A stretch of 40,000 nucleotides of DNA from an uncultured Rivularia sp. (GTDB lineage: Bacteria; Cyanobacteriota; Cyanobacteriia; Cyanobacteriales; Nostocaceae): assembly GCA_963665115.1 (NCBI GenBank), contig OY762007.1:7180679-7220678 (forward strand), written 5' to 3'. The translations under genes were made by a program, and so were the position numbers. Shown here in pieces: positions 520 through 30,358 of this stretch; within the stretch, counting starts at the first letter, position 1, and each line of letters begins with the position of its first letter. The notes beneath the pieces are model-generated. The model did no database searches and had not been told where the DNA came from. It saw only the letters and a list, made by a program, of their open reading frames with translations.

Positions 520-1341
520 ATGACACTTGCTTCATCAACAACTAGAGGACCATTAAATTGGTTGCACATTACATTTTTCGTCGGTTTACATTTTGGAATT
601 TTACTTGCCCTATTCCCCGCTTTTTTTAGCTGGAAAGCTGTTGGTGTCGCTTTACTGCTTTACTGGGTGACTGGAGGCTTGGGTATTACTCTAGGATTTC
701 ACCGTCTGATAACTCATCGCAGTTTTGAAACTCCTAAGTGGCTGGAGTATGTCTTAGCATTTTGCGGGACTCTGGCTTGTCAAGGAGGTCCAATTGCATG
801 GGTTGGAATGCATCGCATACACCATTTACATTCCGATCAAGAGTTAGATCCACATGATTCCAATAAAGGTTTTTTTTGGAGTCATTTACGTTGGATGTTT
901 TACCACTCTCCAGCTTTTGATGATGTTCCTCGCTTTACTAAGGACATCAAGGACGATCCATTCTACATATTTTTAGAAAAGTATATGCTACCAATCCAGT
1001 TCGCTCTGGGTGGATTGCTATTACTTTGGGGTGGCTGGTCTTTTGTGGTTTGGGGTGTTTTTGTTCGTCTTATTTTTGTATGGCACTGTACTTGGTTTGT
1101 CAATAGTGCAACTCATAAGTTTGGCTATCAGACATACGATGCAAAAGACCATTCCACAAACTGCTGGTGGGTAGCTTTACTGACCTATGGTGAAGGCTGG
1201 CACAACAATCACCACGCTTTCCAATATTCTGCTCGTCACGGGTTGCAATGGTGGGAAATTGACCTTACCTGGATGACTATCCAAGTATTACAATTCTTAG
1301 GTTTGGCTACCAATGTCAAACTCGCACCAGTGAAGCAGTAA
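520..1341 (+). CDS. desC: Acyl-lipid Delta9 fatty-acid desaturase
   Basis: 273 aa. Three histidine boxes (HRLITHR, HRIHHLH, HNNHH) and hydrophobic spans typical of cyanobacterial DesC. Confidence 0.9.
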   Translation: MTLASSTTRGPLNWLHITFFVGLHFGILLALFPAFFSWKAVGVALLLYWVTGGLGITLGFHRLITHRSFETPKWLEYVLAFCGTLACQGGPIAWVGMHRIHHLHSDQELDPHDSNKGFFWSHLRWMFYHSPAFDDVPRFTKDIKDDPFYIFLEKYMLPIQFALGGLLLLWGGWSFVVWGVFVRLIFVWHCTWFVNSATHKFGYQTYDAKDHSTNCWWVALLTYGEGWHNNHHAFQYSARHGLQWWEIDLTWMTIQVLQFLGLATNVKLAPVKQ

Positions 1342-1390
1342 TAAGGCTTTAATTATGCGGAAAGTTACTTTTCCGCACCAGATTTTGCAA

Positions 1391-1448
1391 GGTTCGTAGT
1401 AAGCGATTTATCGCTTAATCTCAGGAATAAATTCCTTACTACGAACCC
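1391..1448. repeat. Dispersed structured repeat: outer stem GGTTCGTAGTAAG/CTTACTACGAACC enclosing two small palindromes
   Basis: Outer inverted repeat read directly. Inner palindromes are AAGCGAtttaTCGCTT and AGGAATaaATTCCT. Related copies lie at 4112-4167 and 38014-38066. Confidence 0.6.
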
Positions 1449-1733
1449 GTCAAAGTTAATCAAAGAGATTATTCCGGAACCGTGTTCAAAATCAAAAATT
1501 TAAAATCTTTTGATTGGCTGGGTTTAATTAACATTTATTTACCTCCGCTTAATAATTCTTACTTAAAGGAATAAGCATGGTATAGCTCGTTTTGATCGGA
1601 AAATCGAGCTTTTTCTTGCGGAAGTGGTGTTAATAAATTGATATAATCCTAAACGCGAACGTTACGAAACTTCGCAAAAAGCGACTATGCTAGTTGCTTG
1701 TATGCGGAATTTTTTTATTTATAAAATTCATTC

Positions 1734-2792
1734 ATGACAACATCAGCAGTAAACACACAGAATAATTCACAGCCAAAACCGCCATCTGACTCCCAACTAA
1801 AGCTGACAGACGTGGTAAAAAGCCTTCCTCAAGAGTGTTTTGTACTAGATGCTCGTAAAGCTTGGTTTAGTGTAGTCAGTAATGTTTTAGCCGTTATTCT
1901 TGGCTACTTTTTTTTGGCGATCGCACCTTGGTATCTTTTACCGTTAGCGTGGATATATACAGGTACTGCTGCTACGGGATTTTTTGTCATCGGACATGAT
2001 TGCGCTCATCGTTCATTTGCGAAGCGTCGTTGGGTGAATGATGTAGTAGGGCATTTATTTATGATGCCGTTGATTTACCCTTTCCACGGTTGGCGAATTA
2101 AGCATAACTATCATCATGCTCACACCAATAAGCGGCTGGTAGATAATGCTTGGCAGCCAGTAGGAACTGAAGTTTATGAAAATAGTGGCATAGCTCTTAA
2201 ATGGGCCTTTAAAAGGTTTTTGCACAACCGTTTGTGGTGGATAGGTTCAATCGTACATTGGGCGCTGCATCATTTTAATTGGAATCAATTTCGTAAGCAA
2301 GACCAAGCAGAAGTTAAACTTTCTGTGGCTGTAGTCGCTCTGTTCGCAGCTATATGCTTTCCTACCCTAATTGCAACAACTGGTATCTGGGGATTTATTA
2401 AATTCTGGTTTATCCCTTGGATGGTGTACCATTTTTGGATGAGTACTTTTACTTATATTCACCATACCGCTCCAGATATCGCTTTTGTACCGGCAGATAA
2501 ATGGGATGCACTAACAGCCCAGCTATCCGGTACGGTTCACTGCAATTACCCTCGTTGGGTAGAATTCCTGTGTCACGATATCAACGTACACGTGCCTCAT
2601 CACATTTCCACAGCAATTCCTTCTTATAACCTGCGTCTAGCTCATAGCAGCTTACAAGAGAATTGGGGAAGCTATTTACATGAAGAATGTACGTTCTCTG
2701 TATCTTTGCTGAAGTACATAACTGATAGATGTCACTTATATACTCCAGAGAATGAATATATTTCCTTCAAGGATTATCACGCACAGCAATAA
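1734..2792 (+). CDS. desA: Acyl-lipid Delta12 fatty-acid desaturase
   Basis: 352 aa. Histidine boxes HDCAH, HNYHH and HVPHH. Position directly after desC, as in the desC-desA-desB arrangement known from Nostocales. Confidence 0.9.
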   Translation: MTTSAVNTQNNSQPKPPSDSQLKLTDVVKSLPQECFVLDARKAWFSVVSNVLAVILGYFFLAIAPWYLLPLAWIYTGTAATGFFVIGHDCAHRSFAKRRWVNDVVGHLFMMPLIYPFHGWRIKHNYHHAHTNKRLVDNAWQPVGTEVYENSGIALKWAFKRFLHNRLWWIGSIVHWALHHFNWNQFRKQDQAEVKLSVAVVALFAAICFPTLIATTGIWGFIKFWFIPWMVYHFWMSTFTYIHHTAPDIAFVPADKWDALTAQLSGTVHCNYPRWVEFLCHDINVHVPHHISTAIPSYNLRLAHSSLQENWGSYLHEECTFSVSLLKYITDRCHLYTPENEYISFKDYHAQQ

Positions 2793-2823
2793 TGAGTTCT
2801 GATTTTTTGAAGGACTTACATCT

Positions 2824-2858
2824 TTAACCCCCAAAAATGTATATTAATTGGGGGTTAA
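2824..2858 (+). terminator. Hairpin downstream of desA (10-bp perfect stem TTAACCCCCA/TGGGGGTTAA)
   Basis: Inverted repeat read directly, 32 nt after the desA stop. No clear U-tract follows, so terminator function is uncertain. Confidence 0.4.
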
Positions 2859-3023
2859 CAATAAATAAGAATACAGTCATGAAATTGAAGGTAAGAGACT
2901 ATTTTTTTTAGCGCATGACTAATTTTTGTAATGCCTAATTTTTAAAGTTCAGTCTTTTATACAAATTGATTTTACTGACTTTAATTTGCTCAAAGTTCAC
3001 TTTATATCCGGTAACTTAGCTCA

Positions 3024-4093
3024 GTGACATCTTCTACAATTAATACAGGCAATATTCCTCAAGATGCATCATCAGAGGAAATAACCAAACTTCCCTTTAC
3101 TCTGGGGGATGTAAAAGCAGCAATTCCAGCAGAATGCTTTCAGCCTCAAGTGTGGAAATCTCTGTTTTTCTTCTTCCAAGACATACTAATAATTGCTGGA
3201 CTTTATGCTTTAGCCCATTACTTAGACTCCTGGTTATTTTTTCCCATTTTCTGGGTAATGCAAGGAACGATGTTCTGGGCTTTATTTGTAGTAGGGCATG
3301 ATTGTGGACATCAATCATTTTCTCGTCACAAATGGTTGAACGATTTGATTGGACATTTATCTCATACACCGATACTTGTTCCCTATCATGGATGGCGGAT
3401 TAGTCACCGAACTCACCACAAAAATACTGGTAGTCTGGAAAATGATGAAAGTTGGTATCCGATATCGGAATCAGCTTACAACGAAATGGATATAGTTGAA
3501 AAAATCGGCAGACACTATCTGTTTTTACTGGCTTATCCGGTATATTTATTTAAACGCTCCCCAGGAAAAACAGGCTCTCATTTTTCACCCAGCAGTCCCC
3601 CTTATTCAAACCCTCGGAAAAATGGGATGTGATTACCAGCACCGTACTTTGGAGCGCAATGGTTGGTTTGCTGGCTTTCCTAACCTATCAATGGGGTTTC
3701 ATGTGGTTTCTTAAGTACTACGCTGCTCCATACATTGTATTTGTAATTTGGTTAGATTTGGTAACATTTTTACATCACACCGAGCCAGATATTCCTTGGT
3801 ATCGCGATGGAGAATGGACTTTTCTTAAAGGTGCGCTTTCCAGTGTCGATCGCGATTATGGTTTTATCAATCATATTCACCACGATATCGGAACTCATGT
3901 TGCTCACCACATTTTCTTAAATATCCCTCATTACAATTTGAAGAAAGCAACTGAAGCAATTAAGCCTGTTGTAGGAGAGTATTATCACAAAACTGACGAG
4001 CCAGTTTTAATTTCTCTTTGGAATTCTTTTAGAAAATGCCACTTCGTTCCAAATGAAGGCAAAAAGGTTTATTACACGTATCACTCGAAATAG
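3024..4093 (+). pseudogene. desB: Acyl-lipid omega-3 (Delta15) desaturase, split by one frameshift
   Basis: ORFs 3024-3632 and 3629-4093 together carry HDCGH, HRTHH and HVAHH boxes. They are collinear with DesB as I recall it (…GSHFxPxSPLFxPSEK…TST…). The reading frame changes at the C5 run 3597-3601. One added base restores SSPPLFKPSEKWDVITST and a 356-aa product. GTG start. Confidence 0.85.
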
Positions 4094-4111
4094 GTGTAGC
4101 TGTGTAACAAA

Positions 4112-4167
4112 GGTTCGTAGTAAAGGCTTAAGCCTTCAATCAAAGGACTGAAGTTGTTACTGCAAAC
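4112..4167. repeat. Dispersed structured repeat (GGTTCGTAGTAA… family), copy 2
   Basis: Starts with ggttcgtagtaaaggcttaagcctt (inner palindrome AAGGCTTAAGCCTT). The outer arm is degenerate. Confidence 0.45.
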
Positions 4168-4381
4168 TATTATCAATCAATTGGTGCGTGACGGCAAAAC
4201 TTATTTACAGCCCTTTGCAGCTAAATGAGGTACAAAGCTATATTCCGAAAGTCTTGTGGGATGGGCATCCCTGCCCGTCAGAATGTACTTCACCAAAACT
4301 AAATATGCTGTATCTCGTAATCTTTCGATAATTTATCGTAGCCGTCACACACCCTACAATTTGGAAATTTACGATAATAAA

Positions 4382-4410
4382 AAACCCGGTTTTTCCAAAA
4401 AACCGGGTTT
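4382..4410. terminator. Palindromic hairpin between convergent desB and desD (probable bidirectional terminator)
   Basis: aaacccggtttttccaaaaaaccgggttt has a GC core with A/T runs on both sides. An exact reverse-complement copy lies at 28524-28552. Confidence 0.6.
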
Positions 4411-4450
4411 CTGTATATGTTAAATCTTTGTCGAATCTTACGGTTGAAGT

Positions 4451-5569
4451 TTAGGAAACTTGGGCTGTAACTGTATTTATTTCCGGAGGATTGCCCATGA
4501 TTCTTAACCAACGATAGTTAGCGGCAATTGCTTTTGTAAAAGTTGGGTATACGTTGTACTGCACATTGTATTCTTCACAGACTTGCGCTAATATCGGAGC
4601 AATTTCTGGATAATGTATGTGACAAACATGAGGGAATAAATGGTGGACGGTTTGATAATTAAGCCCGCCCAGATACCAGTTTAAAAATTTGTTTTCTGGA
4701 GCAAAGTCAACTGTTGTTTTTACTTGAGCAATTGCCCATTCATCATCAACTGTATTATCTGGTAAACTTGGTTCGAGAAACTCTGCTGGTTCTAACACGT
4801 GAGCAAGCATAAAAACATTGCAAATTATTATGCCATAAACCATATTTACGATACATAATCCGATAATTACTTCAATAGGACTGTATCCCAAAGCTAATGG
4901 TATACCTGCGTAAAGTCCCAACCAAACAAATTTTGCACCTATTAAAGTCAATAATTCTAAGGTATTTGGTTTTGGGATATTATATTCGTAATATTTGCCT
5001 TTAAATAAAATAAGCTTGACATCAGAAAAAGACCAATAAAATGGAATTATTGCATATACAAAGTTAATCAATAAATGCTGAAATTTATGATATGACTTAT
5101 GCTCTCTTGCCGGAGACATTCTGACTAAACCACTACCATCAATTTCTACATCATGACCTAATATATTCGTATAGGTATGATGCAAATAATTATGACGAAA
5201 TTTCCATAGATAGCTGGAAAGACCTATGACAAAATCATAAGTTAAACCAATAGTATTATTAACCCATTTTTTCTTAGAATAACCGCCGTGGTTGGCATCG
5301 TGCCCTACACTAAAGCCTACACCAGCAAAACCCATTCCCAGCATGATACAGCCAAGTATTTTCATCCACATTACTGGGGGAGAAAAAAGAATAAATATCC
5401 AGGAAAAAAATACCCATCCTAAGATAATTGCACTTTTGAAGTACATGGCAGGATTATCTCTGGGAGTAAGATTTTCAGACTTAAAATAAGCGTCAACTCG
5501 TTTATTTAATTCTTTTCTAAAGCCAATATTTTTGGCAAAAGTTACTCTGGGAGCTTGAGTTTGGATCAT
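4451..5569 (-). CDS. desD: Acyl-lipid Delta6 (front-end) fatty-acid desaturase
   Basis: 372 aa. Boxes HDANH, HNYLHH and QTVHH (Q replacing H in box 3 is the front-end desaturase hallmark). Closely collinear with Synechocystis DesD as I remember it. No cytochrome b5 domain. Confidence 0.85.
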   Translation of the reverse strand: MIQTQAPRVTFAKNIGFRKELNKRVDAYFKSENLTPRDNPAMYFKSAIILGWVFFSWIFILFSPPVMWMKILGCIMLGMGFAGVGFSVGHDANHGGYSKKKWVNNTIGLTYDFVIGLSSYLWKFRHNYLHHTYTNILGHDVEIDGSGLVRMSPAREHKSYHKFQHLLINFVYAIIPFYWSFSDVKLILFKGKYYEYNIPKPNTLELLTLIGAKFVWLGLYAGIPLALGYSPIEVIIGLCIVNMVYGIIICNVFMLAHVLEPAEFLEPSLPDNTVDDEWAIAQVKTTVDFAPENKFLNWYLGGLNYQTVHHLFPHVCHIHYPEIAPILAQVCEEYNVQYNVYPTFTKAIAANYRWLRIMGNPPEINTVTAQVS

Positions 5570-8068: not shown

Positions 8069-8140
8069 AGCGGGTGACGCGATTCGAACGCGCGACATTC
8101 ACCTTGGCAAGGTGACGCTCTACCACTGAGCTACACCCGC
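8069..8140 (-). tRNA. tRNA-Gly (anticodon GCC)
   Basis: The reverse complement reads GCGGGTGTAGCTCAGTGGTAGAGCGTCACCTTGCCAAGGTGAATGTCGCGCGTTCGAATCGCGTCACCCGC. It has an acceptor stem, D-loop, anticodon loop TTGCCAA and T-arm GTTCGAATC. CCA is not encoded. Confidence 0.9.
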
Positions 8141-8216
8141 ATTTAATTGCTAAATAACAATATCTCATATGCATTCATATTTGTCAACACATTTTTTTAG
8201 AAGATGGGAATTGGGC

Positions 8217-8270
8217 ATGGGGTATGGGGTATGGGGTATGGGGTATGGGTAGAGGGGGTAGAGGGGGTAG
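8217..8270. repeat. STRR-like short tandem repeats (heptamer atggggt x4, then nonamer agagggggt x2+)
   Basis: Read directly. Together with 8371-8393 it forms the arms of an imperfect long palindrome (gggaattgggcat… versus …atgcccaatcccc). Confidence 0.8.
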
Positions 8271-8370
8271 AAAAATTATTAATTTACTACTCGCTACTTG
8301 CTACTTCTAACTCATAACTTCTCACCGAACACTTTTCCAATCTAAAATCCCTGCATCCTATGCCCAATCC

Positions 8371-14233: not shown

Positions 14234-17200
14234 CTACTCAATCCCTTCAATCTTATCCTCAACCTGCTGATACAATTCCCGCAACTTATCCAAGTTACTT
14301 TCATCTGTATCCCAGTAACCTCTACCATTAGCTTCCAACAATGAAGTCACCATCTTTCTAAAAGAATGCGGATTTAAGTTCAATAACCTTTCCTGCATTT
14401 CCTGATCTTTCATAAAGGTGTCATTGGTATCTTCGTAAACCCAGTTATCAACAGCATCTGCTGTTGCACTCCAACCAACTGTATTTACTAAGCGTTTGGA
14501 TAATTCCCTCACTCCTTCGTAACCGTGAGATAACATCCCTTCATACCACTTAGGATTCAACAATTTAGTTCGAGAATCCAAGCGCACGGTTTCCGACAAA
14601 GTACGAACTTGGGCGTTTGCTGTGGTGGTATCTGCCATGTAGGATACTGGCTTTTTACCATCTTTCCGCAAGCTAGCTACTACTTTGGTGGGATCGGAAT
14701 CGTAGTAGTGGGAAACGTCGGTTAAACTAATTTCGGAGGAATCTAAGTTTTGGAAGGTGACATCGGCAGTTTGCAATGCACTTTCAAAGATTTTCCGCGA
14801 GTTTTCCATCATTCCTGGGTTATCTGCGGTGAATGCAAAGGATTTGCGTTTCAGGTACATTTCCTGTAATTCCCCTTCTTCTTCCCAAGTACTATTTTCC
14901 ACCGCTAAGTTGATGTTGGAAGAGTAGGAGCCGGAAGCGTTGGAAAATACGCGGGTTGCTGCTTGACGCAAATTAATTCCCATTTCTTCGGCTTGCTTGA
15001 GAGCGTGTTTTCTCACAAAGTTCATTTCTAAGGGTTCGTCGGCTTCTGCTGCCATTTTTACCCCTTGATCTAACAGGTTCATTTGGTTGACAAACAAGTC
15101 GCGGAATACGCCGGAGCAGTTAATTACTGCATCGATTCTCGGTCTTCCCAACTCTTCTAAGGGTACTAATTCTAACTTGTTGACTCTTCCCAAAGCATCT
15201 GGAACCGGCCGCACGCCTACCATCCACATTATCTGTGCTAGTGATTCCCCGTAGGTTTTTATATTGTCGGTTCCCCATAATACACAGGCGATGGTTTCGG
15301 GATATTCGCCGCCGTTGTCGCGCATTTGTCTATCTAACAATCTATCTACAACGACTTTCGCAGATTTAACTGCTGCCATTGTAGGAATTGATTGCGGATC
15401 TAAAGCGTGGATATTTTTACCTGTAGGTAAAACGTCGGGGTTACGAATTGGATCTCCTCCGGGGCCCCAGGTAAAACGTATTCACCTTCCAATCCTTTGA
15501 GTAATGCTCCGAGTTCGTTATCGGCGCATACTTGTTGTAAACAGAATTCCAAGTATTCAAATAAGGGTTTTAATGCTTCCTTATCAACATTGGGATAACC
15601 TGCTTGATGCAAAGCTTCTATCCAAGGTTCTTTTTTACCCATATTGAAGAAGTTCAATTTGGAAACCAGGGATACTCTACCTTCTGCGTCGATTTGCGCT
15701 TTCACCAATGCACCAACGGTTTCGCGGGTAGTAGTTGTGATGTGTTGCAGCAATTCCACATCTTCTAAAATACCTTTGTCGCTGTTACGATAAATTTCTT
15801 CGATGTCGCGTTTAATACTGTTAGCTATAATCCTTGGTAAGCTAATCAGTTCAGACTCTTCTCGATCTAACTCAGCGATATTAACCAAAGTAGCGATTGC
15901 TTCCTCTGCCGTGGGGGGCTTACCAACTACGTGTAAACCACATGGCAACAGTCGCGATTCTATCTCCATCAACCGACGGTAGACGCTACCAACGATATTA
16001 TCGCGCTCTTCTGCGGACATTTCCTTGCAACTGTCTTCCGGCAAGTTGATATCTTTATCTAAATTCACCATCCGGGCTTTATCCATGATGGTATCGACGA
16101 TTGCAACTCCTCTTCCGGTGTCTTTGAGGGTTTGGTAGGAACCAATTAGTTCGCTTAATTCTTTCAAACCTTTATATAAACCGGCGTTTTCTGCGGGGGG
16201 TGTTAAATAAGATATCGTTTCCGCATAGCTGCGACGTTTGGCAATTGTGGCTTCACTGGGATTATTTGCAGCGTAATAATATAAGTTGGGAATCGTACCA
16301 ATTAAACTATCGGGATAACATTCACCCGACATTCCCATTTGCTTTCCTGGCATAAATTCCAAGGAGCCGTGAGTACCGAAGTGCAGTACCGCGTCGGCAC
16401 CCCAAATTTTTTCCAGGTATGTGTAGTATGCAGCAAAACCGTGGTGGGGACTTGCAGAGCGGGAAAATAACAACCTCATTGGATCGCCTTCATAACCAAA
16501 TGTTGGCTGTACCCCAATAAATAAGTTACCGAAATGCTTCCCGTAAACTAATAAATTCTGTCCGTCGCTGTTTAAATTTCCTGGAGGTGCCCCCCAATTT
16601 TCTTCCAAACGCTGGGAATATGGTGTTAATTCTTCATATTCCGGAACCGACATCCGATAAGCAACGTTTAATTCGGGGCTGGCATACTGTGCCTGTACGT
16701 CGTGGATGACTTGTTCCATTAACTCTTTGGCACTACCAGGTAATTCGGGTAAATCGTAGCCATTATTTTGTAAAGCTTTCATTACCTCGTATATGGAACC
16801 GAATACATCTAAATATGCTGCGGTTCCGACATTACCTTTATCCGGTGGGAAGCTAAATACAGTAATCGCCACCTTCTTATCTAACTTGGGCTTACGGCGC
16901 AAATTCGCCCATTTCATTGCTCTTTGAGCAACTGCTTCAACTCTATCTTGGAGAGCGATCGCCTTCCAGTAGCGCCATCTTTACCAGATAAAATTATCGG
17001 TTCAATCGCACCATCTAATTCGGGTATGGCAATTTGTAAAGCGACCTGAATCGGATGCAATCCTAAATCGCTTTCCATCCATTCTTCGGTAGTTTGGAAT
17101 ACCAAAGGTAAGGCAACCATATACGGACGATTTAACCGCTTCAACGAGTCAATCGCCTTCGGGTGGTCTTGTCTGGCGGGACCACCAACTAAAGCAAATC

Positions 17201-18246
17201 CTGTTAAAGATACTACAGCATCAATTAAAGGAGTGCCTTCCTTATTACCTTTATTTAACGTAGAAGTTTCATAAAAATAAGCATCTACTGGCTTAGAAAA
17301 ATCCAAACCACCAGCGAAAACGGGAATTACCTTAGCTCCCATCGCTTCAAATTCCTGGACAAGTGCCACATAATGTGCATCATCACCAGTAACCAAGTGA
17401 GTCCGCTGCAATACTAAACCAATACAGGGCGCTAAGGGATCTTTTAAATCGTCAGAAATATCCTTACGGCTACTAAACCAGTTGAGATACTCCTTCACAT
17501 CCTCAAACATCGTCGGCGCTAAAGGATGCCAAACTCCCATATCGGGATACACAACCGGGGCTTGATATTCTTTTGCAAAAACGAAATTGCTTTGATCGAC
17601 ATCTTTTAAAACATATTTATCAGCCAGCATTAATAAGAAGTTCTCTAAATTATCAGAAGAGCCTCCCAACCAATACTGAAAACTCAACATGAAATTACGA
17701 GCATCTTGAGCCTTTTCAACCGGCAGATACTTTAATACAGAAGGCAGAGTCCCGCAGCAGCTTCAACATTCCATCTTGAAAAGACGAACCGGATTTCTCC
17801 TTGCGCTTCTTCATAAAGCTGGCGATCGCACTCTTTGACTGTCCCAAATTCGCCAAGGAAAAGCTACCCATCTTATTCAGACGCATAACTTCCGGCATCG
17901 AAGGGAAACATACAGCCACATCAAAGTTATCGCGATGGGGCTGCACTGCTGCAACTACCTTCTGAGCTAAATCTTCAATAAAAATAAGTGAAGCGATAAA
18001 AACATTCGCGGTTTCTACATCCTTCTGAAACTGTTCGTAATTTTCTGGCGAACGAAGTTCCTCAATCAAATAACCGCTGATTTCAATAGCAATGTTGGGG
18101 TGATTATCGTTTATAGTCCGTACCGCTTGTGATAAAGCACTCTGATACTGGGACTCTAACACGACATAGACCACCTTAATTAAATGTCGCCCTTCGAGGT
18201 TATCAGGCTTGATGTGTCTAATGGTGGACTTGACGTGAGTAAACAT
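14234..18246 (-). pseudogene. chlH: Magnesium chelatase subunit H, interrupted by three frame changes
   Basis: Four consecutive ORFs (18246-17716, 17690-16914, 16917-15400, 15379-14234) are collinear end to end with Synechocystis ChlH as I recall it (MFTxVKSTIR… to …VEDxIEGxE). The breaks are at ccc 17751-17753 (one extra base), cc 16962-16963 (one base missing) and ggggcccc 15461-15468 (two extra). Corrected length is 1336 aa. Confidence 0.9.
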
Positions 18247-18526
18247 ACGTTTCCTCGCTCCTATGATGCGTGTTCTCTGGTTCGGCACTAAATGTTTTTT
18301 ATCAGAAATTGCCGCCTTTATGGACGTTTTGTCGTCTAACTGACACAATTCGATAAATTTAAACAATTTTTGCTTTACATTACTTTACGTTTTTTTGGTG
18401 TGCTTACTCACATTTAGTAAATTATTTGTAATATTTATATTTGGTTATTTGGTTATTGATGGATAAAAGTTTATAAAACCTTACTAGAGCGCTAAGGACG
18501 CTAAGGGAAGAGGTTAAAGAGAGGTT

Positions 18527-19858
18527 ATGGTGCGGAATGTGGGTTATAAATGTGGGGTTTTTACGGAGAATTTTATGGATGTGGGAGAATTTTTGAGAAG
18601 GTATGAAGATGGGGAAAGGGATTTTTCGGGTATTGAAATTAGGGATGCGGATTTAAGCGGTATTGATTTATATGACAAAGTAATTCTACGAAAAGCTAAA
18701 TTAATCAACATTAATTTAAGTAATTCAAATTTATCGAAAGCTGATTTATCTGAAGCTGATTTAACTGGTTCAAATTTAAATAATGCTTTTTTATGGAAAG
18801 CTAATCTTACAAATGCTAATTTAAGTAATACAAATTTATTTTATGCGAATTTAGAAGCAGCTAATTTAAGAAATGCAATTCTCACAAGTACAGATTTAAG
18901 CTGTACAGATTTAATTGGTGCTGATTTAACTGGTACAAATATAGAAGCAGCTTTAAATTTAGCAAGTCATTACATATTTTTGGTGGATGAATCAAAAAAT
19001 AAAAATACCGAACTACTTACAGAACTGAGAAACTTAACAAGAGGACTTAATTATAGGTATAACTCAGAAGGTTCTTATTATTATGAAATTTTTCTATGGG
19101 ATACTGCATCGAGAGGTGATTTTAGCTTAGAAAAGTTTTTAGAAGCAGCGGTTTTTCTGGTAGAAGTTGATTCAATCGATTTATTTGAAGGGAAATTTTA
19201 TATTGATGAATTTAACTTTATCCTTAAAGATATCAAACAATATATTAAAAATAGAGAATATTTTTATTTGAAGCTCGATATTGGTTTATTCGATAGTGAA
19301 CCTATTCCTGTCTTGATTGGAAATACACAAGCAGGAGATTGGATTGGTATATGTCCTCTTTTTGATATAAAACGAGGTGGTGAAGAAGAAATCGGTAGGA
19401 TACAAGATAACGCATCTCATAAAATCGAATACGAACCATTAATATCAGCTTTGAAAAACTTAGAGACTGTAAAAATTTTTAATTCGGCTTTGATAAATTC
19501 TGAGCCTCTAGGAATTTTTCATCAGGAACTTGATTGTACTGTAGAAGGTGTCGCTTGGGAGATTGCGGAAAATAGAAATAATTTACTCCATAATCTTTTA
19601 AAATATTCTAAAATGATGCATTTTTATGATGATGGTGATTTTGGAGGAGAAGGTTTCTTTGGGGAAAATGATGAAGATATAAAAAAAGACTATCCTGAAG
19701 AATATAAGAGAATTCAGAGATTATCCAATATAATTAAAACTCGTTTCAAAGATATAAAAATTTATTGGATTGGTGATGGTGAGATTGATGTGTATATAGT
19801 CGGTAAAATTGAAACCGGGGATTGGATTGGTATTCGTAGTAGGTTGTCGCATACGTGA
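18527..19858 (+). CDS. Pentapeptide-repeat protein with C-terminal NuiA-like (nuclease-A-inhibitor-like) region
   Basis: About 100 aa of A(D/N)LSx pentapeptide repeats. The C-terminal segments SEGSYYYEIFLWD… and …IKIYWIGDGEIDVYIVGKIETGDWIGIRSRL recall Anabaena NuiA (SESEYPFEVFLWE…, …VYRLGEVELDVYVIGETP…G…). An internal echo occurs at …PVLIGNTQAGDWIGICP. A more likely start is MDVGEF at 18575. Confidence 0.7.
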   Translation: MVRNVGYKCGVFTENFMDVGEFLRRYEDGERDFSGIEIRDADLSGIDLYDKVILRKAKLININLSNSNLSKADLSEADLTGSNLNNAFLWKANLTNANLSNTNLFYANLEAANLRNAILTSTDLSCTDLIGADLTGTNIEAALNLASHYIFLVDESKNKNTELLTELRNLTRGLNYRYNSEGSYYYEIFLWDTASRGDFSLEKFLEAAVFLVEVDSIDLFEGKFYIDEFNFILKDIKQYIKNREYFYLKLDIGLFDSEPIPVLIGNTQAGDWIGICPLFDIKRGGEEEIGRIQDNASHKIEYEPLISALKNLETVKIFNSALINSEPLGIFHQELDCTVEGVAWEIAENRNNLLHNLLKYSKMMHFYDDGDFGGEGFFGENDEDIKKDYPEEYKRIQRLSNIIKTRFKDIKIYWIGDGEIDVYIVGKIETGDWIGIRSRLSHT

Positions 19859-19932: not shown

Positions 19933-20593
19933 TCAAACCGTATCTGGATCTATACCTAATTCTTCCAACTTCTTTCTCAACCTTTCGGCTTTTTCTTCAC
20001 TTTCCTTAAGTGCTTGTGCTAATTCGCTTGGTGCGAGTAATTTTTCCCCCGTATCTTCTCGATAAAAAGCAATTAATTCCGATTCAATTTCCAATCTAAG
20101 TTGCAAAGGTTCGCTTCTATTGTCAGTAATTTCTTCATAAACTTCTTTATCTAAGCGATAACCTTTTAATTTGTTTTCAATCCATTCCCCTTTAGGATCG
20201 AATAACCAATATTCTTTTACACCTAACTGTTCGTAAAGCGTTTTTTTGTAACCCGTATCTTTTTCCTTGGTTTCCTTCCGAGGTAATTTCAAATATCACC
20301 GCAGGTACTTGTTTCTCTTCCCAAATTTTATAATTATCCCTACCACCAGGAGCAACGTTAAAAATTACCATGACATCGGGTGCTACTCTGAGTCTGGGAA
20401 AACCTTGAGCGTAATATAAAAATTGGTCAGCTAAAACTGTCGCTTGCTGTCCCTGCAAATACTGTTTTAAAATTTCTAAGGTTACAAGGATTGCATATAA
20501 ATGAACGTAGGTTTCAGCCAAGGGTTCACCGTCTGAGCTAGGGTAGATGATTGCGATATCGGCTTGTTGGTTTGCTGATGCGAGAGATGTCAT
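19933..20593 (-). pseudogene. Uma2 (DUF820) family endonuclease-fold protein, frameshifted
   Basis: ORFs 20593-20192 and 20292-19933 join as …VPAVIFEITSEG|TKEKDTGYKKTLYEQLGVKEYWLFDP when one T of the ttt run 20271-20273 is removed. The corrected protein is 219 aa. Confidence 0.75.
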
Positions 20594-22407: not shown

Positions 22408-22650
22408 TTAATTTTCATCTTTCTCAACTAGAATTTGATCGAGTCTGTCATTAGCATCTTTAGCAAGCTTCTGGAATTCCACAGCAGAAACTAAACCAGT
22501 AGCAGTAAGTACAGTTCCTTGTGGAACCTTGTTTGATAAAAGCATTCCCGCACCTGCTAAACTAATAAGAAAAGATAGGCTCGTTGCAAAAAATGCCATG
22601 TTAAAGCTATAACGCGCTTGACGTAAACGTTCTTCGATAATGGGTGACAT
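22408..22650 (-). CDS. Small 2-TM protein (possibly the cyanobacterial TRADD-N-associated 2-TM family)
   Basis: 80 aa with two hydrophobic spans and a …FQKLAKDANDRLDQI tail. That tail resembles my memory of the CyanoTRADDas_TM domain. Not verifiable here. Confidence 0.45.
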   Translation of the reverse strand: MSPIIEERLRQARYSFNMAFFATSLSFLISLAGAGMLLSNKVPQGTVLTATGLVSAVEFQKLAKDANDRLDQILVEKDEN

Positions 22651-22812
22651 ATTAAGTTGAAATACTTAACTACACTTCTAATATCACCTTCTGAAACTCC
22701 AATATTGACTACTCAATGATTGTGTTGTGAACAACTTGTGTTTCCTCTATGATTGTTTTATGACCAAGTTTTGATTGCGTAAGCGAAGCTGCTAAAACAC
22801 CCTAGCTCAAAC

Positions 22813-25401
22813 ATGACACAACATAAGCAAAGTGCTAGAAAAAAGAAAATTACTTATAAAGCCTCCTTGCAGGGTGTAGAGAGAGCACAAGCAGCTTTGA
22901 AACGGCATGGATTTGAGTCAAAAAGTAATTTCGCAAAGTCTCAGTTAATATCCCGCTCTACGGTTACAAAGTTTTTTCTGCGTCAACCAATTCAGCTTGA
23001 TTCTTTTAAAAGGATATGTGAAGGGTTGCAATTAAATTGGAAAGAAATTGCGGAGTTAGAAGATACTACGGAATTTCTAGAAGAAAAACAATTAGAACCG
23101 TTAAAAACAGTTGTTAAAAGTTCCTTAGCAATTAACCAAGAGGTTGAAGGAGAAATGACTCGCCGTCAAGTGACTGTGATAGATAAAGAAACGAAAACAG
23201 TTAAAGCAGTTATTACATTAGAAGGCGATATAAATTCAGTTATAAATTACAATATTCTCCAATCTATTTTACGAGGATATACGGGAAACACTATAAAAAT
23301 CAATGATAAACAACCAGGTAGTATTAAGTTAACTATAGAAGGTTCTCAAGAAGATATTGAAAAGCTTCGACAACTGATAGAATCTGAAGAATTAAATCAA
23401 TTAGATGGTTTTCCCGTTAAAAAGATTCAAATTTTGGGTGAAAGTTCAGATGAAAGTCAAAATAATCAAGCAATTGATAAATGGAGTTTGGCAAGTCAGA
23501 TAGTCTCCAAGCAAATTGAAAGCCTAGATTTGAGCGGCGTTGATTTGAGCGATACTTACTTAATTGGTGCTGACTTGAGTGGTTTGAACTTAAGTGGTGC
23601 TGATTTAAGTGGTGCTGACTTAAGCGATACAAATTTAATTAATTTAACTGAAGCTCTAGCTGCGGCTAGGGAGATTCAGAATGAGAGATTTCGCGCTAAT
23701 ATGCTAATTTCTTTAGCTGATAAACTGCCACCAGAATTATTAACTGAAGCTCTAGCTGCGGCTAAGAAGATTCAATATGAGGAATTTCGCGCTAAAGTGC
23801 TAATTTCTTTAGCTGATAAACTGCCGGAATTATTAACTCAAGCTCTGGCTGCGGCTAGGGGGATTCAAGATGAGTATAATCGCGCTAATGTGCTAATTTC
23901 TTTAGCTGATAAACTGCCACCAGGATTATTAATTCAAGCTCTGGCTGCGGCTAGGGAGATTCAAGATGAGTATAATCGCGCTAATGTGCTAATTTCTTTA
24001 GCTGATAAACTGCCACCAGGATTATTAACTCAAGCTCTGGCTGCGGCTAGGGAGATTCAAGATGAGTATAATCGCGCTAAAGTGCTAATTTCTTTAGCTG
24101 ATAAACTGCCGGAATTATTAACTCAAGCTCTGGCTGCGGCTAGGGAGATTCAAAATGAGAGATTTCGCGCTAAAGTGCTAATTTCTTTAGCTGATAAACT
24201 GCCGGAATTATTAACTCAAGCTCTGGCTGCGGCTATGGGGATTCAAGATGAGTATAATCGCGCTAATGTGCTAATTTCTTTAGCTGATAAACTGCCACCA
24301 GAATTATTAACTCAAGCTCTGGCTGCGGCTAGGGAGATTCAAGATGAGTATAATCGCGCTAAAGTGCTAATTTCTTTAGCTGATAAACTGCCACCAGGAT
24401 TATTAACTCAAGCTCTGGTTGCGGCTAGGGGGATTCAAGATGAGTATAATCGCGCTAAAGTGCTAATTTCTTTAGCTGATAAACTGCCACCAGAATTATT
24501 AACTCAAGCTCTGGCTGCGGCTAGGGGGATTCAATATGAGTATAATCGCGCTAAAGTGCTAATTTCTTTAGCTGATAAACTGCCACCAGAATTATTAACT
24601 CAAGCTCTGGCTGCGGCTAGGGAGATTCAAAATGAGCGCGCTAAAGTGCTAATTTCTTTAGCTGATAAACTGCCACCAGAATTATTAACTCAAACTCTGG
24701 CTGCGGCTAGGGAGATTCAAGATGAGTGTAATCGCGCTAAAGTGCTAATTTCTTTAGCTGATAAACTGCCGGAATTATTAACTGAAGCTCTGGCTGCGGC
24801 TAGGGAGATTCAAGATGAGTATAATCGCGTTAATGTGCTAATTTCTTTAGCTGATAAACTGCCGGAATTATTAACTGAAGCTCTGGCAGTGGCTAGGGAG
24901 ACTCAAGATGAGAACTATTACGCTAATGTGTTGCAAACCTTAGTAAAGAAATTACTATCGCATGATGGTAGCTTGAATAAAGTCAGTCAAAGTTTTGCCA
25001 ATTTAGAAGGTTCAACTTTGATTAATGCTGACTTGAGCAAAGTTGATTTAAGACGCGGTAATTTGAGAAAAGCCAATTTTAATAAAGCTAATCTAGAAGG
25101 TGCTTTTCTAAATGATGCCGATTTGAGTAAAGCAAAGCTGATTCAAACTAACCTGAGATACGCTTACTTAAGAGATGCCAAACTCGTTAGTGCTAAATTA
25201 ACAGATGCCAATTTAGCAGATGCTAACCTTGCAGGAGCCAACTTAATTGATGCTGACTTAAGTGGTGCTAATGTAAAAAATGCGAAATTTGGACACAATC
25301 AAGGAATTTCAGATGAATTGAAGCGCGATCTTCAGCGGCGAGGGGCTATATTTGTTGACGAGCCTCCTAGAGAAGATTCAAGGGTTTTAGTTCCTGTATA
25401 G
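22813..25401 (+). CDS. Multidomain repeat protein: N-terminal HTH-like module, unknown domain, pentapeptide block, 13-14 alpha-helical (HEAT/ARM-like) repeats, pentapeptide block
   Basis: 862 aa in a single uninterrupted frame. The N-terminus …SNFAKSQLISRSTVTKFFLRQPIQLDSFKRICEGLQLNWKEIAEL resembles the HTH module common at the start of cyanobacterial WD40/TPR/pentapeptide proteins. Pentapeptide runs lie at about 23530-23640 and 24990-25280. Confidence 0.8.
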   Translation: MTQHKQSARKKKITYKASLQGVERAQAALKRHGFESKSNFAKSQLISRSTVTKFFLRQPIQLDSFKRICEGLQLNWKEIAELEDTTEFLEEKQLEPLKTVVKSSLAINQEVEGEMTRRQVTVIDKETKTVKAVITLEGDINSVINYNILQSILRGYTGNTIKINDKQPGSIKLTIEGSQEDIEKLRQLIESEELNQLDGFPVKKIQILGESSDESQNNQAIDKWSLASQIVSKQIESLDLSGVDLSDTYLIGADLSGLNLSGADLSGADLSDTNLINLTEALAAAREIQNERFRANMLISLADKLPPELLTEALAAAKKIQYEEFRAKVLISLADKLPELLTQALAAARGIQDEYNRANVLISLADKLPPGLLIQALAAAREIQDEYNRANVLISLADKLPPGLLTQALAAAREIQDEYNRAKVLISLADKLPELLTQALAAAREIQNERFRAKVLISLADKLPELLTQALAAAMGIQDEYNRANVLISLADKLPPELLTQALAAAREIQDEYNRAKVLISLADKLPPGLLTQALVAARGIQDEYNRAKVLISLADKLPPELLTQALAAARGIQYEYNRAKVLISLADKLPPELLTQALAAAREIQNERAKVLISLADKLPPELLTQTLAAAREIQDECNRAKVLISLADKLPELLTEALAAAREIQDEYNRVNVLISLADKLPELLTEALAVARETQDENYYANVLQTLVKKLLSHDGSLNKVSQSFANLEGSTLINADLSKVDLRRGNLRKANFNKANLEGAFLNDADLSKAKLIQTNLRYAYLRDAKLVSAKLTDANLADANLAGANLIDADLSGANVKNAKFGHNQGISDELKRDLQRRGAIFVDEPPREDSRVLVPV
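23644..24960 (+). repeat. Coding tandem array: 13 near-identical units of 90-96 bp (30-32 aa) plus one degenerate unit
   Basis: Consensus unit is LTQALAAAREIQDEYNRAKVLISLADKLPPEL. Unit lengths counted by hand are 32,31,32,32,31,31,32,32,32,32,30,31,31 aa. Unit 14 (from 24871) is divergent. Confidence 0.9.
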
Positions 25402-28965: not shown

Positions 28966-30358
28966 ATGACATTGCCTAATACTTTTAAAACTCCCTCCTT
29001 TCTACAAAAGGTGCAGTGGGTAGCCGATCCTGTCGCATATATGGAAAAAGCGGCTCGGCAATATCCTGATATTTATACAGCGGAAGTGGTTGGTTTTGGT
29101 AATACTTTGGTATTCGTGAATCATCCCGAAGGAATAGAAAAAGTTTTTAGCAATGACACAAAAGAATTTGTCGCGATAGGAGAAACCAATAAGACATTTG
29201 AGCCGATAATTGGGGAATATGGATTGGTGATATTAGATGGCGATCGCCACAAACGACAGCGAAAGTTGATGATGCCATCTTTTCACGGTAAGCGGATGCA
29301 TTCCTATGCAGAATTGATGTGTCATCATAGCGAAAAAGTTTTTGCTAACTTACCTATTAACGAAACATTTTCGGCTAGTGAAGCAACTTTAGATATTTCT
29401 TTGGAAGTTATTTTGGGTGCTGTATTCGGTTTATCGGAAGGGGAACGTTATCAGCAAATTAAAAATAAACTGCTTTCAATGTTGCATATTGTTTCTTCAC
29501 CTTTGACTGCTAGTTTCCTACTTTTCCCCGCTTTACAAAAAGATTTAGGGGCTTGGAGTCTTTGGGGTAAGTTTGTCCGTTTGCGAAAGCAGCTTGATGA
29601 CTTAATTTATGCCGAAATCGCCGAACGTCGCAATCATCGCGATGCAGATAGGGTTGATGTTCTTTCCATGTTGATGGAAGCGATAGATGAAGAAGGGCAG
29701 GCGATGACAGATAAGGAGTTGCGAGATGAGTTGATAACTATGTTGCTCGCAGGGACATGAAACCTCGGCAACCGCTATGGCTTGGTCATTATATTGGGTT
29801 CACCATACACCGCACGTGAAGGAAAAACTGCTCGCAGAAATCGATAACTTGGGTGAAAATCCAGATCCAATGGAAGTATTTCGACTTCCTTATTTAACTG
29901 CTGTATGTAACGAAACTTTACGGATTTGTCCGGTATCTATGACCACGTTTCCGAGAGTAGTTAAAGAACCTGTGGAATTGTTGGGACATAATTTAGAACC
30001 GGGCACAGTAATAGTAGGAAGTCTTTACAATTTGCATCGTCGGGAAGACTTGTATCCTCAGTCCAACAAATTTAGACCAGAACGTTTTTCAGAAAGACAA
30101 TATTCACAATACGAACTTTTCTCTTTTGGTGGAGGTGCGCGGAGGTGTGTTGGAGAAGCTTTTGCGATGTTTGAAATGAAGTTAGTTTTAACAACAATAC
30201 TTTCAAAATATCAACTGGAATTAGCAGATAACAAACCAGAAAAGCTTCAGCGTCATGGTGCATTTAATCTTGCGCCAGCCAACGGAGTCAAAATGTCAAT
30301 TACAGGAATGCGCCCTCAGCCTCAATTAGCTGTAGCTATGGCTAGTGAAATAAATTAA
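28966..30358 (+). pseudogene. Cytochrome P450, frameshifted
   Basis: ORFs 28966-29760 and 29777-30358. Removing one G from ggg 29752-29754 restores …LLAGHETSATAMAWSLYW… (the I-helix AGxET motif). Cys-ligand loop is FSFGGGARRCVGEAFA, with an ExxR-like ETLR. Corrected length is 463 aa. Confidence 0.85.

Follow-up and report, generated by a model that had tools for sequence, protein, structure and literature searches.

Why would a protein keep more than a dozen copies of one helical repeat almost unchanged and let them differ, unit after unit, at the same few exposed codons? This question is raised by a tandem array in an uncultured Rivularia sp. (Nostocaceae), located in a stretch of 40,000 nucleotides (nt) of contig OY762007.1 (assembly GCA_963665115.1, positions 7,180,679 to 7,220,678), which is called the window here and whose own numbering is used throughout. 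The array lies in an intact open reading frame (ORF) of 862 amino acids (aa) on the forward strand (22813..25401), taken from the ORF list, and the product matches Pfam Pentapeptide (E 4.9e-34) and TRADD-like_N (E 1.5e-13). Based on the observations described below, we suggest that the array is probably a recombination-diversified target-recognition module of a predicted cyanobacterial TRADD-N conflict-system protein. The scaffold of the repeat is kept near-identical by intragenic recombination (unequal crossing-over or gene conversion), which also changes the number of units and shuffles their variants. The main diverse exposed codons are 13, 15, 16 and 19 of the unit, and codons 9 and 10 are additionally variable in the window gene. 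Judged by sequence comparison, many cyanobacterial NB-ARC/NACHT (NLR-like) NTPases carry the same type of repeat in their C-terminal arrays.

Anatomy of the repeat array

Tandem Repeats Finder (TRF) detected a single array at 23644-24912 with a period of 96, 13.4 copies, 92% matches and a score of 2016, and this near-identical array is far beyond chance. When the translation was cut at the recurring L(T/I)(E/Q)(A/T)L motif, 13 units of 30, 31 or 32 aa were obtained. They lie in one open frame within the 862-aa ORF, and no other ORF of at least 80 aa in the ORF list overlaps the array. These 13 near-identical units (90-96 nt each) occupy 23644..24870 (+) and were assigned to a hypervariable α-solenoid from TRF, the codon alignment and AlphaFold. 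They are followed at 24871..24966 (+) by a degenerate unit 14, which reads LTEALAVARETQDENYYANVLQTLVKKLLSHD and is taken as the C-terminal cap (…ANVLQTLVKKLL…) from its translation and from its equivalents in related loci; such cap units were found in P0002, L001a, L001b, L002 and L003, the related genes described below. The initial annotation, which was made from the letters of the window, had counted 13 full units plus one degenerate unit, and both TRF and the translation bear this out. Its start at 23644 also stands, but its end at 24960 does not, since the degenerate unit ends at 24966.

The consensus of the unit from the codon-level alignment is LTQALAAAREIQDEYNRAKVLISLADKLPPEL. Columns 21-29 (LISLADKLP) are identical throughout units 1-13, and variation is found at columns 3 (E/Q), 9 (R/K/M), 10 (E/G/K), 13 (D/N/Y), 15 (Y/R/E/C), 16 (N/F), 19 (K/N), 20 (V/M) and 31 (E/G), with singleton variants at columns 2, 4, 6 and 18. 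The linker carries either PP or P, and this indel tracks CCA-CCA versus CCG. The DEYN cassette is present in eight units, NERF in units 1 and 6, and YEEF in unit 2, while unit 11 is a NERFRA-type unit minus exactly AGATTT, the loss lying between AATGAG and CGCGCT. The codon alignment agrees in each detail with what had been proposed earlier, namely the list of variable positions, the invariant LISLADKLP, the linker indel, a 6-nt deletion in unit 11 and a mosaic distribution of DEYNRA and NERFRA cassettes. The mean pairwise identity between units is 0.82 for the amino acids and 0.88 for the nucleotides; internal units are 2-6 nt apart, and the edge units 1 and 2 are 9-13 nt from the others. All unit-length differences are multiples of 3, and phase variation by frameshifting was rejected for this reason.

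Fold of the repeat and location of the variable positions

We modelled the protein with AlphaFold2 using an alignment of 48 sequences (mean predicted local distance difference test score, pLDDT, 80); a single-sequence model was good for the array alone. The model contains 28 helices arranged as regular hairpins over aa 278-716, with pLDDT 89-98 over 310-680. Each unit consists of helix A (residues 30-32 of the preceding unit and 1-9), a turn (10-13), helix B (14-25) and a short loop. When the model was compared with the Protein Data Bank (PDB) using Foldseek, the best long natural matches were the HEAT solenoids Kap121p, RanBP5, SF3B1, PP2A-B55 (entry 8uo5_A), transportin-3 and VPS35L, with template modelling (TM) scores of 0.30-0.37, and tetratricopeptide repeat (TPR) proteins such as LGN gave about 0.13. 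The high-pLDDT hairpins and the predominance of HEAT proteins among these matches support the HEAT/ARM-like helical-hairpin solenoid that the initial annotation had predicted.

Profile searches gave little for the repeat. Pfam HEAT, HEAT_2 and HEAT_PBS are not listed at E <= 1 for the window protein, and the homologue P0006 matches HEAT_2 with 23.7 bits, below the cutoff of 27.7. A PDB sequence search with the array returned designed toroid repeats at E 0.05 only, and a profile of the unit matched TON_1535 (3zpj) weakly (E 9.9e-6) and nothing else meaningful. We rejected a TPR identity, since the units have 30-32 rather than 34 aa and the sole TPR-named Pfam entry, TPR_IPO5, reached E 0.13 and 12.9 bits versus a cutoff of 27. 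A PBS-lyase (phycobilisome) HEAT function was set aside on the lack of a profile match and on the TRADD-N and NLR context. Matches of SidC_C, AlphaC_N2, GlfT2, PaaA2 and others in the repeat region, obtained by sum score from Pfam and NCBIfam, contain zero significant stretches and were dismissed as repeat artefacts.

In a helical wheel, every variable position is placed opposite the hydrophobic moment of its helix, that is, on the exposed side. Positions 9, 10, 13, 15, 16 and 19 bracket the A-B turn and lie on the exposed side of helix B. Because the A-B turns align between successive units, the main variable residues are expected to make up a ridge on one edge and on the adjoining helix-B face, and the predicted model is in this respect consistent with the variable surface that had been suggested at the outset.

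Hypervariable codons and evolution of the array

In 19 NLR arrays of high internal identity, the entropy peaks at positions 13, 15, 16 and 19 (1.3-1.7 bits versus 0.7 or less elsewhere), and the per-position entropy of the window array correlates with this NLR profile (Spearman 0.59, p 3.5e-4). We took these four codons as an a-priori class from the NLR arrays for the tests on the window array. Although they make up 4 of the 32 codons, they take 10 of the 24 minimal mutation events (binomial p 3.4e-4). In the window array, the proportion of non-synonymous differences (pN) at these codons is 0.30 versus a synonymous proportion (pS) of 0.004, and pS in the scaffold is 0.024. In all six arrays compared, pN at the four codons stays at 0.24-0.30 regardless of scaffold divergence, and pN/pS is at least 3 in five of the six; for the scaffold, this ratio lies at 0.43-0.69 in the four arrays that have diverged more.

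We then compared units within and between arrays. The nearest unit is in the same array for 12 of 13 units in the window, 23 of 24 in L002, 10 of 10 in L001b and 15 of 15 in L003, and the identity within arrays is higher than that between arrays for every gene. This likeness, as read from the aligned units, indicates either concerted evolution or independent recent expansions. In the four-gamete test on the 13 window units, all four combinations occur at 11 of 21 variable-site pairs, so that the variants have been recombined in short tracts. Divergence follows a gradient between edge and centre, with the edge units most divergent and the last unit degenerate, as is usual where unequal exchange has homogenised an array. 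The same-array nearest units, the four-gamete test and the edge divergence support a recent expansion accompanied by unequal recombination or by gene conversion, as had been proposed from the window. The copy-number variability expected there was also found, since the window has 14 units and related loci have 4, 11, 15, 16 or more, and 25. The 25-unit array of L002 is more uniform still than that of the window, and multi-unit blocks (QDEQY, QDQYH, QDQYH, QNEKF) recur in it, a pattern that, at the sequence level, indicates block duplication.

Homologues of the array and of the host protein

The homologue search covered 5.8 billion proteins and returned two kinds of match. About 25 relatives of 490-620 aa share the helix-turn-helix (HTH), TRADD-N and pentapeptide parts and are without helical repeats. 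The other kind, about 95 retrieved NB-ARC/NACHT STAND NTPases of 1,100-1,500 aa, aligns with the array alone. These NTPases carry the same repeat in C-terminal arrays that contain 10-24 units, come from Nostoc, Calothrix, Scytonema, Okeania and others, and include EAD4, EAD10, TIR and CHAT among their N-terminal domains. When a three-unit query was run against 1.84 billion cluster representatives, 3,578 were matched at E <= 1e-3 and 567 at E <= 1e-30, most of them 1,000-2,000 aa long. Four of six sampled representatives carry NB-ARC, CHAT + NB-ARC, KAP or AAA_16 P-loop domains, and the other two have no Pfam match. No Pfam model covers the 31-32-aa repeat. The NB-ARC/NACHT arrays of P0001, P0003, P0004, P0006 and P0013 end in a conserved tail of about 70 aa with the motif …LFPLWQDTLHxLSLRTRPNLLQDIKALxPVIFALGGEAA…ARAIxDVARWW, which is absent in the TRADD-N version and has no Pfam model.

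The array-bearing TRADD-N version was found in five further genes. They are P0002 at locus L004 (587 aa, 4 units, on a short-read megahit contig), the tandem paralogues L001a (850 aa, 15 units) and L001b (805 aa, 11 units), the syntenic orthologue L002 (25 units, frame broken) and L003 of Calothrix sp. PCC 7103 (950 aa, 16 or more units). In this small HTH + TRADD-N + pentapeptide clade the array is placed between two pentapeptide blocks, and both junctions are kept in all five genes, namely ...SDTNLINL before the first unit and the cap ...VLQTLVKKLL...SQSFANLEG. Since both junctions are conserved, the sequences suggest that an NLR-type array entered the pentapeptide region once, in an ancestor of these genes, and has since changed in copy number.

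Two of these loci have features of their own. In the L001 metagenome-assembled genome (2588-5140, 6001-8418, 8439-10916), the two array-bearing paralogues lie in tandem, a gene for a two-transmembrane (2-TM) protein is located upstream of the second only, and resolvase-like and TnpB-like ORFs that resemble an IS607-type element come after them. At L003, a 964-aa AAA_35 + CHASE2 protein (2068-4962, +) adjoins the 2-TM/TRADD-N pair; Kaur et al. mention CHASE2 modules in connection with related TRADD-N systems.

Domain organization of the host protein

The order of domains in the 862-aa protein is a putative HTH, TRADD-N, a short pentapeptide block, the 14-unit α-solenoid and a pentapeptide β-helix. 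The putative N-terminal HTH module (22846..23052, +; aa ~12-80) was assigned from AlphaFold helices at aa 19-79 (pLDDT 78-88) and from the homologue P0084, which matches Pfam HTH_26 (Cro/C1-type) with 25 bits at aa 36-83, equal in position to the N-terminal bundle of the window protein. The N-terminus of the window protein itself has no Pfam match. The N-terminal module of the L003 homologue has been catalogued as 'TRADD-N-aHTH1' (Kaur et al. 2021, eLife 10:e70394). The TRADD-N adaptor domain follows at 23161..23433 (+; aa ~117-207), where PF20694 matches aa 146-207 with 50.8 bits versus a cutoff of 23.7. This region is modelled as β-α-β (aa 117-200) with moderate confidence only (pLDDT ~60).

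The first short pentapeptide block (23488..23643, +; aa ~226-277) has its best Pfam stretch at aa 239-275 and ends at the SDTNLINL junction. It is modelled as a short β-helical block (aa 238-275, pLDDT 59-74) and contains a period-15 array at 23558-23624 (TRF). The second block (24970..25302, +; aa ~720-830), which matches Pentapeptide_4 at aa 756-826, forms a right-handed β-helix with regular 5-residue strands in the model (aa 727-830, pLDDT 76-93). The PF00805 matches form four stretches that flank the array on either side. In a Foldseek search the C-terminal block resembles the Nostoc pentapeptide proteins alr1298, Np275/276 and HetL, and in NCBIfam it comes closest to the pentapeptide proteins HetL and Alr5209, with every score well under its cutoff. 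No NTPase domain was found in the 862-aa protein with Pfam or NCBIfam. The initial annotation had recorded neither this host protein with its TRADD-N, HTH and pentapeptide parts, nor the 2-TM gene beside it, nor the relation of the repeat to sensor arrays of NLR-like NTPases.

Neighbouring genes and the divergent intergenic region

Upstream of the array gene lies a divergent 80-aa gene (22408..22650, -) whose product matches PF20712, CyanoTRADDas_TM, with E 1.8e-19. This family is described as 'Cyanobacterial TRADD-N associated 2-Transmembrane domain', and the gene may encode a partner or effector for the TRADD-N protein. A small homologous gene is kept in the same position at L001, L002, L003 and L004. 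The region between the two divergent genes (22651..22812, no strand assigned) is a candidate promoter/operator and 5' leader. In an alignment of five loci, including the distant Calothrix PCC 7103, it contains long invariant blocks, among them TCAATGATTGTGTTGTGAACAACTTGTG and, directly before the ATG, GTTTTGATTGCGTAAGCGAAGCTGCTAAAACACCCTAGCC. These blocks may be an operator for the HTH of the protein itself or a leader element; no Rfam family was found in or near the gene, this intergenic region included.

The synteny of the flanking LpxB-like and inositol monophosphatase-like genes is retained in a related metagenome-assembled genome. Further away in the window, a second pentapeptide protein 3 kb upstream (18527-19858, +) carries a NuiA (nuclease A inhibitor-like) domain fused at its C-terminus. 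A fatty-acid desaturase cluster with three intact genes and one split gene is found at 520-5569, a tRNA at 8069-8140 (-) beside short G-rich heptamer arrays (8206-8271), and a 704-aa dynamin-family GTPase at 35146-37260 (-).

We also considered whether the array is the target of a diversity-generating retroelement. The variation is spread over 13 units, and the first base of codon 13 alternates between G, A and T. This candidate was set aside, since Pfam identified no reverse transcriptase among the window ORFs of at least 150 aa; the template-repeat search was confined to the window.

Proposed function and alternative explanations

The recognition module that we propose would work as follows. 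The diverse ridge along the A-B turns would bind a ligand that itself varies, and a protein from an invading element is the most plausible one. This contact might then be relayed through the TRADD-N adaptor to the 2-TM protein, to the HTH of the TRADD-N protein, or to both, and the relay would proceed with no NTPase switch in the polypeptide itself. Bacterial TRADD-N proteins are known to carry pentapeptide, TPR or HEAT repeats and have been predicted to be counter-invader or cell-death components (PMC8195603). It is also conceivable, on a distinctly more tentative footing, that the TRADD-N clade took over the hypervariable sensor array of NLRs without their NTPase switch, and that the solenoid recognises invaders or non-self and signals to the 2-TM effector and/or the HTH.

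Here, we need to consider several observations that weigh against this interpretation. No ligand, phenotype or interaction has been demonstrated for any family member, and no PADLOC model matches the protein. Because the protein lacks an NTPase or an enzymatic effector, any signalling route is conjectural. The flanking LpxB-like and inositol monophosphatase-like genes are housekeeping genes rather than a defence island. From secondary structure and helical periodicity we infer that the variable residues should lie on one face of the predicted solenoid, so that their clustering is a deduction, and the mildly variable positions 3 and 31 are located at the other end of helix A. The whole-array pN/pS is 1.84, with 21 non-synonymous versus 3 synonymous events, which is non-significant alone (p 0.11), and for this reason we relied on the contrast between site classes. 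Within that contrast, pN/pS at the hypervariable codons of L002 is 0.8, a value derived from very few synonymous sites.

Other explanations of the array were weighed against a recognition role. The array might be a structural spacer or scaffold, that is, an adjustable rigid rod which orients the pentapeptide blocks or aids multimerisation and whose unit differences are neutral. Such a role would fit the superstructure and scaffold functions of HEAT, TPR and pentapeptide repeats stressed by Kaur et al. (PMC7159879), the free variation in unit number from 4 to 25, and a whole-array dN/dS that is not significantly above 1. However, neutral turnover would not single out codons 13, 15, 16 and 19, whereas diversity occurs at these same four exposed positions in the window gene and in independent NLR arrays, and these codons keep a pN of about 0.3 versus a pS of 0.02 in the homogenised remainder. 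We therefore regard a mere spacer as quite improbable. The protein might instead be a cellular regulator, either an HTH transcription factor or a HetL-like protein, with a solenoid that binds an endogenous partner and with a role in development or in self/non-self discrimination between filaments. The putative N-terminal HTH, the HetL and Alr5209 matches (however far below their cutoffs), the housekeeping surroundings with conserved synteny and the conserved divergent promoter region agree with this, as does the function of highly internally conserved fungal repeats in allorecognition. A conserved endogenous partner would disfavour hypervariable contacts and rapid copy-number change, though, and the homologous arrays sit in NLR-like proteins with death- or effector-associated domains, so that a regulator seems to us unlikely; its allorecognition version may be compatible with all data presented here.

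It has also been asked whether the array, its unit number and its mosaic pattern might be unreal, as a product of collapsed, expanded or chimeric assembly. Several conserved genes of the window are split by frameshifts: ChlH/CobN Mg-chelatase into four ORFs (14234-18366, -), a cytochrome P450 into two (28966-30358, +, with an extra A within the AGHET motif near 29757), a fatty-acid desaturase into two (3024-4093, +) and a Uma2 endonuclease into two (19933-20593, -). These splits suggest an indel-prone assembly or many pseudogenes, which bears on the trust placed in repeat lengths. Moreover, the four-unit P0002 comes from a short-read megahit contig and may be a collapsed assembly, and at 7600-8076 of L002 two units, 95 and 94 nt long, throw four units out of frame, after which the frame is recovered, a feature that may reflect long-read consensus errors or a recent pseudogene. 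On the other side, the 2.6-kb ORF of the window is intact across 14 units, its unit lengths differ by multiples of 3 only, and comparable arrays are present in five independent assemblies, including an isolate genome. Since every unit differs from every other and exact repeats within the array reach at most 90 nt, collapse appears less likely than for a perfect array and, as far as the letters tell, less likely than had been feared in the initial annotation. An artefact of this kind is very improbable in our view, and we retain a diversified target-recognition module as the probable role of the array.

If the more tentative reading, a takeover of the NLR sensor array by the TRADD-N clade, is true, the protein would be a minimal innate immune or allorecognition receptor that is independent of a NOD module, and the repeat family, with about 3,600 clusters, would be a natural programmable binder scaffold with a specificity code of about four residues per unit. 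The locus provides three leads. The first is a large repeat family without a Pfam model (about 3,600 representatives), which occurs mostly in STAND NTPases and has four specificity-type positions, and the second is a compact two-gene, NTPase-less TRADD-N case for probing sensor recognition in filamentous cyanobacteria. The third is the example that the array gives of the behaviour of such repeats in assemblies, which is relevant to annotation and long-read work.

Comparison with known systems

The unit of the window array shares with HEAT and PBS-lyase-type HEAT-like repeats a two-helix hairpin of about 31 residues that forms solenoids, but it differs from them in the absence of a Pfam HEAT match at threshold and in structural TM-scores of about 0.3-0.37. 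The alphaRep artificial binders are reportedly built on 31-residue HEAT-like repeats, work said to be that of Urvoas et al. in 2010. The variable residues of the window array, on one helix near the turn, presumably resemble the randomised positions of alphaRep. TON_1535, a hypothetical protein of Thermococcus onnurineus, shares the motif ALxxAxxIxDxxxRxxaLxxLA with the repeat, but it is archaeal, has a repeat spacing of about 40 residues and is not internally conserved, and the weak match covers single half-units. No paper describing this 31-32-aa repeat was found in the literature searches.

The architecture of the host protein is already known. Kaur, Iyer, Burroughs and Aravind (2021, eLife 10:e70394) catalogued 'TRADD-N-aHTH1 + TRADD-N + Pentapeptide (+TPRs)' with the same domain order and a TM neighbour, and the 950-aa Calothrix homologue L003 is WP_019496514.1 in their Figure 3 source data 1. 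The majority of members with the TRADD-N/pentapeptide architecture are without a helical array, unlike the window protein. The helical repeats are labelled 'TPRs' in their table, a label that appears generic, and their near-identity, hypervariable positions, copy-number change and homology to NLR arrays are not discussed in the portions of that paper available to us.

High internal conservation (HIC) of NLR repeats is likewise known. In fungal NLRs it has been linked to rapid diversification of binding specificity, and the same conservation has been observed in bacterial NLRs with WD and TPR repeats (bioRxiv 10.1101/2020.01.06.895854). The HIC arrays, that is, the fungal HET-E/HET-D WD40, ANK and TPR arrays and the bacterial WD/TPR arrays of Dyrka et al., have a unit identity of about 80-90%, as in the window array. 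In both cases a few exposed variable positions show a non-synonymous excess, recombination shuffles units and changes their number, and assemblies are hard to resolve. The differences lie in the repeat and in its setting. The window repeat is a 31-32-aa helical hairpin rather than a WD40, ANK or canonical TPR unit, and its array is internal and flanked by pentapeptide β-helix blocks, whereas that of NLRs is C-terminal. Unlike HIC NLRs, the host protein has no NB-ARC/NACHT module, which is present in about 95 proteins with homologous arrays. Three aspects appear to be undescribed in the searchable literature, namely the 31-32-aa repeat family with its four hypervariable positions, the homology of the repeats between NLR arrays and the TRADD-N clade, and the recombinational dynamics of the repeat in an NTPase-less protein. 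The array joins the repeat shuffling and site hypervariability of the fungal NLR type to the predicted bacterial TRADD-N conflict systems, which have hitherto been described separately.

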